The notes beneath the pieces are model-generated. The model was not told the DNA's origin. It saw only the letters and a list, made by a program, of their open reading frames with translations, and made no database searches. A program made the translations under genes and the position numbers. This document shows, piece after piece, positions 33,964 through 44,135 of a stretch of 64,000 nucleotides of DNA. The stretch comes from Octopus vulgaris. Lineage: Eukaryota. How positions within the stretch are numbered: position 1 is the stretch's first letter; each line of letters starts with the position of its first letter. The DNA lies in assembly GCA_951406725.2 (NCBI GenBank), contig OX597815.1, forward strand, positions 20,832,001 through 20,896,000, in the 5' to 3' direction.

Positions 33964-34183
33964 TGGGAAGAAAAGTCAAGGTAGAAAATGCTAGAATAAT
34001 TTTATAAAGAATATTTCAGTACTGGTTTCAGTCATTGAGATGTTTTCAACTGTAAGTATGGAAAACAATTAAATTTTGGAAAAATTTAAAGAAAAGTCTT
34101 TAAAAGAATATTTGCATAGTATTCAAATACAAGGGGCATTTTTTCCTTGTTTCTGCCTGTCTCTGCCTCTCTTGTTTACTCTT
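33964..34183 (-). mobile_element. ~220-bp HHR-bearing short element, copy 1 (HHR 34017-34052)
   Basis: Same ends as the inverted copy 43922-44135; cag-TTGAAAA-catctcaatgact-GAAA-CCAG-TA-ctg. Confidence 0.75.
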
Positions 34184-34234
34184 GTGGGTTCGAGGTCGTA
34201 TATATATATATATATATATATATATATATACACA

Positions 34235-34462
34235 TAGATATAGATAGATAGATAGATAGATAGATAGATAGATAGATAGATAGATAGATAGATAGATAGA
34301 TAGATAGATAGATAGATAGATAGATAGATAGATAGATAGATAGACAGACAGACAGACAGATAGATAGATAGATAGATAGATAGATAGATAGATAGATAGA
34401 TAGATAGATAGATAGATAGATAGATAGATAGATAGATAGATAGATAGATAGATAGATAGATA
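34235..34462. repeat. (GATA)n microsatellite
   Basis: Direct inspection. Confidence 0.98.
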
Positions 34463-34474
34463 GGGTAAGACAGA

Positions 34475-34830
34475 TTCAGAAGATGTGTGCAAAGCGGATC
34501 AGCTCCTGAACATAAGATTTGTTGATCTCAGAAAGGTTTTTAACACTTGTGTCCATTTTCATATTGGCATACCGTCGAGTGGTCTTTTGCTATGTTCCAA
34601 AAGACTATCAAACAACGTTATTAAGCGCAAATATGGTGGCAAATTGTACAACATTCCCAAATTTCAAGCAAAGCGTGCGGTTAAACAGCCTACTATGTGT
34701 GAACTGTTTGCAGATGTTTGTAGGTCTTTTGTAGAAGATGAGGCCAGTATGCAAGTACGTTCACGTTATCATCATAGAACTGTATCAACTTTGGCTTCGC
34801 TATAAGTACAGCAAAAACAGAATTACTGCA
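34475..34830 (+). mobile_element. RTE-like RT fragment
   Basis: FVDLRKVFNT and GKLYNIPKFQAKRAV..ELFAD resemble RTE RT motifs. Confidence 0.7.
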
Positions 34831-35704
34831 TCAATCTTACTCGAGAATGCGTATTGTGTACAACTTCATTAATAATACATTGAACTGAGTTGAAAATATA
34901 GACAATTTTGAGTATATACATGTTTATTCGAAATATCGCTATGTATCTTTCTGCCTGTCTCATATATACATGCATTCACACACACACATATACATACATT
35001 GCTATGCGTACATATGTGCGTGAATCTGTATTCATATTTATATGTAATAATACATATAGTATATGCATATATATAGGTATATAAATGTCAGTATATATAC
35101 ATGCACATAAACACGCATACACACACATATATACGTATATATATGGAGATAAGGATAGAAAGTAATTGAAAAATATTACGCATGCTTAGATTCATGCCTA
35201 TTTATGTGTGTTTATTATGTTTTCCACCACTGTTTGTCTATTTATTAAATCAATTCATATTTATTAGAACATCTGAATTCTATCGCTAACTTCATCAACT
35301 ACATACAATTGGCCTCCATAAATTATCGGGACTGAACTTGGATCAACACATATTCAATATCTCGTGAAGATTTAAATGATTAATAGATATCATGGGTCTC
35401 ATTTATTTATATCTAAACGTTAGGATGTTGAAGGTGGTGTAAATGATATCAATTAGTTCTTAGAATTTATTGTATAAAGTTCACTGTATCACATTTTTGA
35501 TTGTATTCGACAATAAGGTCATACTTGCCTTTCATCTTTATGTGATCGATATCATAATACCAATAATATAATGGGACTGAACGATAGATCATATCTCTTC
35601 CTAAAAGAGCCTTGAGCCTACTCAAAAATTATTTATTTGCGGCATGAATCTGTTGAATCTGTATTTTTATATACTGCTTAATGCAGAAGAAATATATGTT
35701 TAAG

Positions 35705-40608: not shown

Positions 40609-40922
40609 GGCGCATGGCTCAGTGGTCACGAACGCGAGTTGTGAGTTTGAATCCCGAACCGGGCTGCATGTTGTGTTCTTGGGCAAGACACTTTATTTGA
40701 CGTTGCTCCAGTTCACTCAGTTGTAGAAATGAGTTGCGACGTCACAGGTGCCAAGCTGTATCGGCCTTTGCCTTTCCCATGGATAACATCAGTGGTGTGG
40801 AGAGGGGAGACTGGTATGTATGGGCGACTGCTGGTCTTCCATAAACAACCTTGCTCGGACTTGTGCCCGGGAGGGTAACTTTCTCGGTGCAATCCCATGA
40901 TCAGTCATTCCGAAGAGGGTCT
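40609..40922 (+). mobile_element. tRNA/CORE-like SINE type D
   Basis: GGCGCATGGCTCAGTGG, GTTTGAATCCC, TGTGTTCTTGGGCAAGACACTTT..CACTCAG. Confidence 0.85.
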
Positions 40923-41164
40923 CGGCATCATTGAGACATCATATGAATATACAATGATCTTAGTACTTGGCTGGGGCTTTCATGAATGATCCTGGAGTAA
41001 TAACGGGAGAATTTGATCTCCTTTAAATTCAGATCGTAAAGGTCCGTAACAAATTGCCAAAAGACATTCTGTCAAACACTCAAACACTTCAGCCAATTTA
41101 TTCGATCTGATTAGGACCGCGATTAAAATGTTTTCAAGATAATTTTTCACAAATGTTAATATAT

Positions 41165-41392
41165 GTATGTGTGTGTTTGTGTGTCTGTGTTTGTCCCCCT
41201 AGCATTGCTTGACAACCGATGCTGGTATGTTTACGTCCCGTCACTTAGCGGTTCGGCAAAAGAGACCGATAGAATAAGTACTGGGCTTACAAAGAATAAG
41301 TCCCGGGGTCGATTGCTCGACTAAAGGCGGTGCTCCAGCATGGCCGCAGTCAAATGACTGAAACAAGTAAAAGAGTAAAAGAGTAAAAGAGT
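41165..41392 (+). mobile_element. SINE type A 3' half
   Basis: GACAACCGATGCTGG...CAGTCAAATGACTGAAACAA(GTAAAAGA)3. Confidence 0.92.
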
Positions 41393-43921
41393 AATTGGTG
41401 ATAGTATTCACTCTGATATTTATTGCTTCCTGAGAAACAAATGGCTCAGCGATAGATTTGTACTCAAAATTGAGAATAATCTGCTACTCCTCTCTTTGCC
41501 TCCTTACTGCTGTAAGCATGAATAATGATTTCTAATAAAACCATAAATGTGTAGACTGTGTAATATAGCGGGCTATATCTGTCCGGGATTGGAACTCAGA
41601 GCATAAAAGTAAGCAACTAAATACCGCAAGGCGTTTTGGTCGACAACTCGCTGTCCACTGAACGTGTATAATACTGTTTTCTTAAATAGATCCAAAACTA
41701 CTGAACATAAGTGATACTAATAAATATGAAAAATAAAATATTTATAGCTGGGTAGATTTATGCTTGTCAGTAGAAAATAAATCCACGACAATGCAAACAA
41801 AAAAGAATACAGTTTACATTGAATTACTTCTGTTATAAAATTGTTATATCATTACTTTTGATTTATGGTTTGTCTGTTTTCCATAATTTTGACTTCTTTT
41901 GACAAGACCCAAAGTCTCATATTTATAGACAATATATTCTGCTATATTTATTATATTTTATTAATGATGTAGTGGAGTCAAGAGAGAATCGAAACCGGTC
42001 TGTCAATCACTTGTTATATTATTAAAAAGTAGTTAACCTTTCTTTTCTTTTAGAACTTTGAAAGTAATTGATTATCACAAGTAAATCAGAAAATCCTTTT
42101 AGAAAATCTTTTTAATATACAAATCAATCTGATGAAAGTAATATATGGATGCTAATATAAAATACATATAAATATGCCTGTGATAAGCTCCAAAAATCTA
42201 TACATAGATTTGTCGATAAACATGTAGAAAAATAAAAGTCAGAAAATGTCAGAAGTATTTCACAACATATCGAATAACAAATGGATATTTGGTATAGTAA
42301 AAGATGTAATTGCTAAAATGCATAGGATATGTGAATACAAAACTTCCAATAATATGGAAAACAAAAATATGCCACAAATATAACTGAACGTCTTAGAATT
42401 ATATTTCTTTAAATAAAATATACTTGTTGAACTGGGATTTATTTCAGTAATTCGTCGGCAATCTTAACGGAACCAATATAGAAATAAAGCATATAAGAAA
42501 AATTTAGTATATAGTTTGCTGTAGATGCAAGGACTGATGATTATATATATTTGTGCATAGAGTTGTTTGCAATATTTTCTTTTAATTATTTAATTAACTT
42601 TTGAATAAATATGTATTAAAAACACTTTGGAGAGTGCAACTATTCAACATTTTAAAACATTTTTTCCTTCAAATTCGAACATCAATTATATAAAGTAACA
42701 TTTTTAATCATAGATAAATGTCAGTATTAAGATAAAACAAATATTTTCTTGGATTATTTTAAGAACGAAAATATTTTTCATGCTGTTAAATTCAGATAGT
42801 TAAATTGTTCCATCCATATAAACATATCTGGAAATTTGCTAGCAAACTGCAAGCGTTTTGATTTCCCTAGAGACTCAACTAGTTGTACAAGTGCTCCAGA
42901 ATAAATTTTAGAAATTAGACGCTAAGTATATTACCAGGATGCAGTAAGGTTTTACATTTGAAGTTTCTCGTCGTCTGTGTTGCCAAAGAATCAACTGTTT
43001 TATCGTTAATATGTCAGGATGAATTTGGTTTTGTTCTCTTATTTGAAACTTTTAATTCTTAAATAGATATTACTTGATGTGTTTATCTAGATACTTAAGA
43101 ATGTATTTGCTGCATGCTACAATACTTCTTCACTCCACGAACACTGTAACTAAACAAAAGAAATTATTACTGATAGTAAGACAAATGCAGAAATCCCGCG
43201 GATTAATTTCCGGATTTGTATATATAATTTTATACAACCCATAATAATAAACTGTACAATAGTTCTGTGTTTATATCTGCGTATGTGCGCTTACTATTGA
43301 AAACAATACTGTATCCCATTTATAATAGGTTTAATTTTAATTGCATTGTTTCCGTGTGTAAATATTGTTTATATGTTGTCTACATTTCGCTAATTTTAAA
43401 CTAATTATGCTGTTGACATAATCTCATCTTATGTGTATTTAAAACATTGAAGCTCAAATGTGTACCGTTGATTGAATTCACTCTACATTCAACCGTGCAC
43501 TTCATTTTGCTGTACTATTCCAGTTCCTAATGAAGAAGGTTTAATATTTTACAACATTGAATTCAACGTCTATTATTGCATAGTTTTCACTCTGTTTTAT
43601 CTTGGATATTTTGCTTGAAAATATGTAAACAGAGGTGCCTTTCATTCGACTGTAAACACTAGATGCATTTTCTATTTTGTATACGGTCTTATTATTTTTG
43701 CTTTTTTTTTCTAATTTATACATTAAGAATCTCAACTAAAACCATACTAGAATATGAACGCGTTTTGGCGCTCCTTAGTCATTGCAATCTAGCTTTTGAC
43801 CCAGTAACACAGCCACGTAACACTTTAACATGTAAACTTCAAATGCTTGTCTCGTACGTCCCGCTGTTCTAAATCCTGCTTCATCTCAATGATTTATTTA
43901 TACATACATACATTTGTGTAT

Positions 43922-44135
43922 AAGAGTAAACAAGAGAGACAGAGATAGGCAGAAACAAGGAAAATGACACTTGTATTTGAACACTATACAAATATTCTTT
44001 AAAAAAAAATTTCTTTTAATTTTTCTAAATTTAATTGTTTAATTCTTACAGTTGGAAAAGTCTCAATGTCTGAAACCGGTACTGAAATGTTTTTTAGAAA
44101 ATTATTTTAGCATTTTCTATCTTGACTTTTTTCCA
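43922..44135 (+). mobile_element. ~220-bp HHR-bearing short element, copy 2 (HHR 44049-44084)
   Basis: cag-TTGGAAA-AGTCtcaatGTCT-GAAA-CCGG-TA-ctg; ends in (TA)n. Confidence 0.75.

Follow-up and report, generated by a model that had tools for sequence, protein, structure and literature searches.

Two inverted repeat copies in a 64-kb stretch of Octopus vulgaris DNA (the window) appear, with a probability that we put at roughly three in four, to belong to a very abundant repeat, each truncated at a different point on its 5' side; the repeat adjoins (TA)n tracts, and its majority form is laid out like a minimal type I hammerhead ribozyme with a U3-A8 core. The repeat would then likely be the 3' end (pseudo-LTR, or pLTR) of a Penelope-like retroelement (PLE) or of a non-autonomous derivative, with an RNA that cuts itself only as a dimer.

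In hammerhead-sense orientation, copy 1 occupies 33964..34199 on the minus strand and copy 2 occupies 43922..44135 on the plus strand. The two lie about 10 kb apart, inverted relative to each other, and an alignment shows 85.8% identity over 219 columns (E 1e-65). This bears out the inverted copies that an earlier note had placed at 33964-34183 and 43922-44135, but not its claim that both ends are shared, for the 3' end (about 44132-44135 in copy 2 and 33964 in copy 1) is the sole end in common. Copy 1 reaches 16 nt beyond 34183 on its 5' side, and these extra nucleotides, up to 34199, match the upstream consensus found at loose contig ends of the family. Copy 2 is 5'-truncated with respect to both copy 1 and the family, which continues at least 30 nt past it. 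The two copies and the contigs of public sequencing runs show a fixed 3' end and two different 5' ends within a longer family sequence. A (TA)n tract at 33870..33963 adjoins the 3' end of copy 1, another at 34200..34229, followed by (GATA)n, adjoins its 5' end, and a third at 44134..44165 adjoins the 3' end of copy 2.

Family letters, depths and loose ends were taken from contigs of public runs (X1, X11, X19, and X23 among them) placed on the element. Adding up contig depth over the element gives maxima of 279,206 in X1 and 463,773 in X11, compared with 15.5 and 50.4 for the single-copy flank, which very roughly suggests a family on the order of 10^4 copies, a depth ratio being no true copy number. 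Depth falls off in the central stretch (about 43996-44055), owing to a repeat skipped in contig placement and to the private changes of copy 2, and positions 3 and 8 are consequently read at about 2% of peak. At 43922, 83 contigs from X1 and 44 from X11 have loose ends that extend upstream by at least 30 nt and share one consensus (agreement 0.61 and 0.66), while loose ends on the 3' side cluster at 44130-44134 and are TA-rich. In two runs guessed to be RNA, the element has 4 and 304 contigs and the unique flank has none, counts that are uninformative on strand, level, and cleavage.

The majority form reads U3-U-G-A-A-A8-A, then a stem II of 4 bp and GAAA; its stem III is self-complementary and its stem I is 3 bp long. 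It contains the minimal type I core, N3-U-G-A-N-N8-A ... GAAA ... UH with Watson-Crick pairing between positions 3 and 8, and a stem II of at least 4 bp, a length shared by a minor form in X11. Adenine accounts for 97%, 88%, and 99% of the depth at 44055 (position 6) in X1, X11, and X23, and for 96%, 99%, and 99% at 44069 (stem II); the consensus with U3-A8 that had been combined from the two window copies in fact matches the family majority (88-99% and 96-99% at these columns). The stem III hexamer is self-complementary and permits a dimer, with a duplex energy of -8.3 kcal/mol. Predicted lowest-energy folds of the majority form, whether monomer or dimer, keep stem II and do not form stem I. 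At 10.1-11.1 the majority form has A-U where G-C is usual, and no extra base follows position 9. In the minor X11 form, a loose-end consensus of 10 contigs (agreement 0.8), stem II is GAUC/GAUC instead of AGUC/GACU, two double-sided changes that produce the usual G10.1-C11.1 pair. A T-to-C change at 44071 (7%, 18%, and 18% in X1, X11, and X23) would break the 10.1-11.1 pair unless matched, and the letter table holds no change that matches it. Minor letters at 44049 and 44084 could form a compensating stem I pair, although the table does not give their phase.

The motif itself lies at 34017..34052 on the minus strand in copy 1 (U3 at 34049, A8 at 34044) and at 44049..44084 on the plus strand in copy 2 (U3 at 44052, A8 at 44057, GAAA at 44072-44075, palindrome at 44075-44080), with the cut in copy 2 predicted after 44081. 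Copy 1 retains all twelve core letters, contains two stem II mismatches, and has lost the stem III palindrome; private to copy 2 are a change of A6 to G at 44055 and a stem II mismatch at 44069. Stem I comprises three Watson-Crick pairs in each, the 4-bp stem II is broken in both, and neither window copy has an intact motif. Both are probably inactive; for the repeat at large, self-cutting after position 17 is a prediction. Between the two copies, 5 of 36 columns differ in the motif and 26 of 175 in the rest (Fisher p = 1.0). Conservation of the motif does not exceed that of the remaining element, an outcome named beforehand as refuting; yet the test is a poor one, because inactive copies should accumulate changes uniformly.

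The earlier note had reported U3 and A8 in both copies and in an unrelated motif near 50809 (U3 at 50844, minus strand), and all three assignments hold. Its interpretation of them as compensatory variation fares less well. Agreement of two given columns through drift alone has a probability of 0.72, so compensation cannot be argued from just these two copies. Nor is 3-8 covariation seen inside the family in the run contigs: C3 stays below 4% in each of four runs, G8 reaches about 5% in two of them without C3, and no C3-G8 form appears. U3-A8 alternates with C3-G8 only between unrelated families of the window. Specialists would find little surprise in the variant: it is already published, together with its pairing and the activity of other hammerheads that carry it. 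Perreault et al. (2011, PMC3088659) describe C3-G8 covarying to U3-A8 in several natural hammerheads, with U3-A8 variants active in vitro, and about 1,300 hits with U3-A8 are reported for PLE hammerheads in Schistosoma mansoni (PMC4209133, 2014). That a search for CUGANGA only would miss the variant was rightly anticipated; the first descriptor of Cervera and De la Pena did miss it (PMC4209133).

The closest likeness is to the minimal hammerheads of metazoan PLEs, including S. mansoni Cercyon, as described in PMC4209133. These share with the window repeat the type I layout, a short helix I, a palindromic helix III suited to dimers, the U3-A8 core, an occurrence mostly as single dispersed copies, attributed there to truncated PLEs, and many unrelated families per genome. 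The window repeat differs in its 4-bp stem II (7-8 bp in the S. mansoni families), in the A-U pair at 10.1-11.1 and the lack of an extra base after position 9 in its majority form, in its host, and in that no linked frame was seen; a G10.1-C11.1 pair with an extra base after position 9 is described as a frequent trait, outside that paper's descriptor. The natural U3-A8 hammerheads of PMC3088659 have the same core, whereas the window motif has no stable stem III. Poseidon PAc of Anolis carolinensis (PMC11167929) likewise has a hammerhead near the element end and AT-rich targets, and its optional 30-40 bp tail may be compared with the partly shared 3' continuation of the window family. PAc, however, has C3-G8 and a frame starting at stem II, while the loop II ATG of the window repeat, read from copy 1, reaches a stop after 14 codons; PAc cleavage is reported to require protein and to be dispensable for insertion in vitro. 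Among octopus PLEs, Naiad_Obim and Naiad_Ovul share the (TA)n insertion preference, and the Naiads are described as being without canonical hammerheads (PMC8557442). A Naiad origin, weighed for that preference, is unsupported: ten short motifs of the window's families do not occur in the PLE consensus file that accompanies PMC8557442, in which a motif spanning a line break could escape.

Membership of the repeat in the Penelope-like group is likely, although no parent reading frame was seen. Pfam found neither reverse transcriptase nor GIY-YIG domains in 128 stop-to-stop frames from the 26-56 kb part of the window (of 278 listed), and no PLE domain in 36 read-through frames around the motifs; such a gap near the window copies is expected of truncated copies. 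Tandem or inverted partial copies were not seen for copies 1 and 2, while an inverted layout occurs at two other motifs of the window. Pattern scans for the repeat returned 0 and 0 matches in metagenome contigs and 0 in viral contigs. PLEs constitute 6.83% of the Octopus vulgaris assembly (PMC13282606 supplement).

Copying would be carried out by the reverse transcriptase and GIY-YIG endonuclease of the element, from a fixed 3' point of its RNA into AT-rich targets, and would halt early at varying points to leave variable 5' truncations. We infer such fixed-start copying with early stops because the copies end alike on the 3' side, begin at different 5' points, and are flanked by (TA)n; it is established for PLEs in the published work consulted. 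The 6-nt stem III would join two motifs in an active master, the palindrome being visible in the family and the pairing and cutting conjectural, and U3-A8 would take the place of C3-G8 as the tertiary pair. Inserted copies, evenly diverged as they are, would decay without selection, leaving those of the window probably inactive.

It is unlikely that the repeat is instead a non-LTR retrozyme family, a tandem unit cut by its hammerheads, circularised, and reinserted, with the window copies as solo monomers. Metazoan non-LTR retrozymes (PMC7229834; bioRxiv 10.64898/2026.07.22.740005) are also short non-coding type I repeats, and the latter source describes families as related to pLTRs and capable of being largely monomeric. 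The window repeat similarly has a type I hammerhead inside a short, non-coding, AT-rich sequence in very many copies, some of which share a 3' continuation past 44132 (two X19 contigs, agreement 0.97). However, retrozymes are defined by tandem units and, in PMC7229834, by canonical hammerheads and circular RNA, and the motif of this repeat is of the minimal PLE type that PMC7229834 sets apart from the canonical retrozyme type. Copies 1 and 2 are inverted and 10 kb apart rather than tandem, with no head-to-tail units at these two loci, and among the joints listed, 0 of 6 connect the 3' end to the 5' part. One X19 contig carries 238 nt upstream of 43922 that were placed on no part of the element, and a tandem unit would have to exceed some 450 nt if these are family sequence.

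We also consider it improbable that the repeat is an independent SINE-like element, non-autonomous and with fixed ends, that borrows PLE or LINE enzymes through a shared 3' tail. Its copy number is very high, in ten X11 contigs stem I is immediately preceded by a TA run at the contig start, which hints at a short form that begins at one fixed point, and loose ends in 11 X11 contigs and one X19 contig share the last 35 nt alone, joined to different upstream sequence. The earlier note had offered a solo pLTR or a SINE-like unit; a pLTR-like origin is the best reading, but the fixed 220-bp SINE-like unit is unsupported because the 5' ends of the window copies differ, inside a family sequence that is longer. 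A tRNA gene scan of the window found no genes and no tRNA-like head, a weak test for SINE heads. Derivation from a PLE and a SINE-like way of life are not mutually exclusive, as the motif would still be of PLE type.

The window contains three further minimal hammerheads. One, with U3-A8, is at 50808..50850 on the minus strand (U3 at 50844), with a 6-bp stem I, a self-complementary stem III, and one stem II mismatch; it sits in the loop of an inverted repeat (50637..50998, arms of 139 aligned bases, 96% identical) whose layout recalls that of a truncated Penelope insertion carrying a 5' copy in inverted orientation. Another, with the canonical C3-G8, is at 33693..33736 on the minus strand (C3 at 33732, 8-nt self-complementary stem III), in the loop of an inverted repeat at 33626..33840 whose arms are 80% identical over 76 columns. 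This inverted-repeat layout is that of PLE insertions (PMC8557442). The third, with U3-A8, is at 8458..8499 on the plus strand (U3 at 8462); it has a 4-bp stem I and a self-complementary stem III, and a (TA)n tract follows about 90 nt downstream. The 33732 and 8462 motifs had both been overlooked in the earlier note. Stem III duplexes of the three have energies of -4.6, -6.4, and -8.3 kcal/mol. The four hammerhead-bearing units show no relatedness beyond 12-nt matches, and U3-A8 is the core in three of the four families, C3-G8 in one.

A strict minimal-hammerhead descriptor matches three times in the window and never in 150 dinucleotide shuffles, and a relaxed version with position 6 free matches four times, with one match in 4 of 150 shuffles and never more; the descriptor was composed after the motifs had been seen, which biases the shuffle test in their favour. 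The copy 1 motif escapes even the relaxed version. With E values up to 10 allowed, Rfam Hammerhead_1 (RF00163) matched neither copy 2 nor the 50844 motif; it scored the 33732 motif at only 10.8 bits (E 9.8), the gathering threshold being 34 bits. A whole-window Rfam scan dominated by microsatellites, the sole such cover of copy 1 and the 8462 motif, has no hammerhead in the best 150 of its 352 rows. That the hammerhead likeness is a chance product of AT-rich DNA, in a fragment of some unrelated transposon, would suit the missing Rfam match in copy 2, the unexceptional conservation of the motif, and its damage in both copies, but is very improbable given that the family majority restores every feature, that the minor form has double-sided stem II changes, and that the shuffles so rarely yield what the window does.

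A very abundant family, from a host group that has probably been little surveyed, is added to the known minimal hammerheads of PLEs, a gain of modest importance. Our literature search found no survey of such motifs in cephalopods or octopus, though published supplements may include mollusc or similar motifs. With four unrelated families in 64 kb, three of them U3-A8, searches for CUGANGA only will miss most such motifs in this genome. More speculatively, the repeat could be a short, non-autonomous, (TA)n-targeting Penelope-like offshoot that has reached some 10^4 copies in several related species, in which hammerhead-bearing and hammerhead-less forms share the 35-nt 3' tail and U3-A8 is the genome's usual core, as in three of the four families here. 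If so, the offshoot would offer a naturally occurring way to ask whether Penelope-type transposition gains from the ribozyme or just carries it along.

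Two inverted copies of one abundant repeat, claimed by an earlier note on this DNA, are present in the window: copy 1 (33964-34199; hammerhead sense minus) and copy 2 (43922-44135; hammerhead sense plus). They are 85.8% identical over 219 columns, and the hammerhead core does carry U3 and A8 in both. In copy 2, position 6 is G and stem II is mismatched once; in copy 1, stem II is mismatched twice and the stem III palindrome is disrupted. Low activity is reported for a change at position 6 (PMC3088659), and both copies are, from their sequences, probably inactive. The motif was expected to be more conserved than the rest of the element and is not, with 5 of 36 columns differing inside it and 26 of 175 outside (Fisher p = 1.0). 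Because divergence is even, and any two columns would agree between the copies by chance with probability 0.72, the pair alone cannot show compensation or selection.

Contigs from four public runs, X1, X11, X19 and X23, were aligned to 43780-44137 at 80% likeness (2098, 1537, 4 and 304 contigs). On the unique flank the contig depths add up to 15.5 in X1 and 50.4 in X11, against maxima of 279,206 and 463,773 over the element, which implies on the order of 10^4 copies, summed depth not being a true copy number. The commonest letters of this family, its majority form, reproduce the consensus previously combined from the two copies and mend both defects of copy 2; the majority letter is A at 44055 (97% in X1, 88% in X11, 99% in X23) and at 44069 (96%, 99% and 99%). 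At position 3, sampled at about 2% of peak depth, no alternative letter reaches 4% in the four runs, and so there is no sign of a C3-G8 subfamily within the family; at similar sampling, position 8 reads G in 5.4% (4 contigs) of X1, 4.7% (8 contigs) of X11 and none of X23. In a minor form found in 10 X11 contigs (loose-end consensus, agreement 0.8), stem II is GAUC/GAUC in place of AGUC/GACU, so that two pairs are altered on both sides. This swap is the best evidence here that structure may have been selected in master elements. Counting against such selection are C at 44071 (7%, 18% and 18% in X1, X11 and X23), for which no partner change is visible, and minor letters as numerous in the motif as in its flanks. 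The minor form (at 44072) opens on a run of TA immediately ahead of stem I and is thus a stub roughly 95 nt long; copy 1 is one change from it in the 5' strand of stem II and has the majority form in the 3' strand.

Only the 3' end is common to the copies, which were said to share both ends. The loose 3' ends, rich in TA, are concentrated at 44130-44134; the partly common continuation beyond them in some contigs (agreement 0.49-0.58, or 0.97 for two contigs, plus single contigs) may be an optional tail of a Penelope-like element (PLE). Contigs running 5' past 43922 with similar sequence number 83 in X1, 44 in X11, 2 in X19 and 11 in X23, and copy 1 carries the last 16 bases of this upstream sequence, up to 34199, followed by (TA)n. 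The copies are therefore cut at different 5' points within a longer family, a pattern that does not fit a fixed 220-bp unit. Target-primed retrotransposition with early stops produces a common 3' end and variable 5' ends, the pattern that the copies' ends match. Separately, 11 X11 contigs and one X19 contig match the last 35 nt alone (44098-44132); what precedes these in the contigs is a different sequence, similar to the one immediately 5' of the hammerhead. They may represent a form lacking the hammerhead, or a separate family that ends in this tail. A 3-kb X11 contig (record 9) under a different organism code aligns to the unique flank (43780-43919), from which it differs at 12 places; its final 52 bases are unmatched to the element, which could mean an empty site or a 5' part that is longer.

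The descriptor used for minimal type I hammerheads, composed after the motifs were seen, required a 3-8 pair, a 3-bp stem I, a palindromic stem III and a 4-bp stem II with at most one mismatch. Its strict version (A6 required) has three matches in the window, named by position 3 as 8462 (plus), 50844 (minus) and 33732 (minus), and its relaxed version (position 6 free) adds copy 2; among 150 dinucleotide shuffles the strict version matched none and the relaxed version once in each of four. Motif 8462 (8458-8499) is U3-A8, its core is intact, and a (TA)n tract follows about 90 nt downstream. Motif 50844, cited earlier at 50809, is also U3-A8 and lies in the loop of a young-looking inverted repeat (50637-50998; arms 96% over 139 columns). 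Motif 33732 (33693-33736), canonical C3-G8, occupies the loop of an inverted repeat (33626-33840; arms 80% identical over 76 columns) of an unrelated family, about 120 nt from copy 1 with (TA)n between. The latter two resemble the layout that PMC8557442 describes for PLE insertions carrying a truncated copy in inverted orientation. Stem III is self-complementary in all four motifs (duplex -4.6 to -8.3 kcal/mol), and the four units show no relation beyond 12-nt matches. With U3-A8 in three families and C3-G8 in one, the 3-8 pair alternates between unrelated families of the window.

The window itself is AT-rich (GC 0.28-0.41 per 2 kb), with microsatellites and dispersed repeats throughout, and is animal-like on these grounds; its repeats presumably resemble octopus SINEs. 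Words of the 2.1-kb stretch around copy 2 occur in at least 20 runs of six organism codes, half or more of them in 8 of the 20 runs listed. A decayed LTR-retrotransposon remnant at 9590-10500 matches an aspartyl protease (E 0.003) and an integrase core (E 3e-7) in different frames. Fragments at 7200-8400 (minus), 45225-45640, 60740-61320 and 38400-39830 resemble, by eye, reading frames of LINEs; the only domain match among them is a weak zf-RVT (E 0.002, 38438-38635), and inverted arms of 370 nt lie at 38517-39828. Long MITE-like hairpins at 59151-59470, 32269-32438 and 18852-19307 have no descriptor match. A 388-nt repeat occurs at 24172-24559 and 36311-36698, its two copies being 97% identical. 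Both it and a SINE-like family present in multiple copies (14817-17315, 20733-20976, 37274-37928, 44726-44963) may be akin to octopus SINEs.

No reverse transcriptase or GIY-YIG domain was found near any motif (128 stop-to-stop frames at window positions 26-56 kb and 36 read-through frames around the motifs), no related locus in a pattern scan of metagenome and viral contigs, and no Rfam hammerhead above noise in local scans of copy 2 and motifs 50844 and 33732. Ten short motifs of the window's families were unmatched in the PLE consensus file of PMC8557442, where a line break could hide one. PLE membership is accordingly argued from anatomy, on which the repeat is quite likely a member of a PLE family whose parent frame is unseen. 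The nearest alternative is a retrozyme, an element that requires tandem units (PMC7229834; bioRxiv 10.64898/2026.07.22.740005); copies 1 and 2 show none. We put at about 0.9 the probability that the motif of this family descends from a true hammerhead; it would work like the minimal hammerhead of PLEs. In the structures of lowest energy predicted for the majority form, stem II is kept and stem I is lost, so the active fold would be marginal at best unless a partner or a protein assists.

The majority form, the palindrome, the variable 5' ends, the (TA)n flanks and the even decay are present in the sequences. In a master PLE, or a non-autonomous derivative, the motif would have lain about 50 nt short of the 3' end. 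Two such motifs, joined by stem III pairing in one tandem transcript, would cut slowly, possibly aided by protein. Reverse transcription starting in the 3' region, with AT-rich DNA as its target, would have left thousands of short stubs, which would then have decayed. Single minimal motifs are reported as uncut and dimers as weakly cut (PMC4209133), a dimer model is given in PMC6765202, and the hammerhead of PAc, the Poseidon PLE of Anolis carolinensis, is described as cleaving only with protein and as dispensable for insertion in vitro (PMC11167929).

Natural C3-G8 to U3-A8 covariation was reported by Perreault et al. 2011, who cite earlier in vitro proof of U3-A8 activity (PMC3088659), and Cervera and De la Pena 2014 describe a U3-A8 variant in Cercyon PLEs, with about 1,300 matches, mostly single, that escaped their first descriptor (PMC4209133). 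PLEs are abundant in Octopus vulgaris (PMC13282606), and that paper's supplement contains neither "hammerhead" nor "ribozyme". It seems unlikely that the repeat is an independent short PLE offshoot with ribozyme-bearing and ribozyme-less forms, in a genome where U3-A8 cores predominate. The hammerhead motif of the family is real; the U3-A8 PLE type was already described, and the family would be a new member of it.
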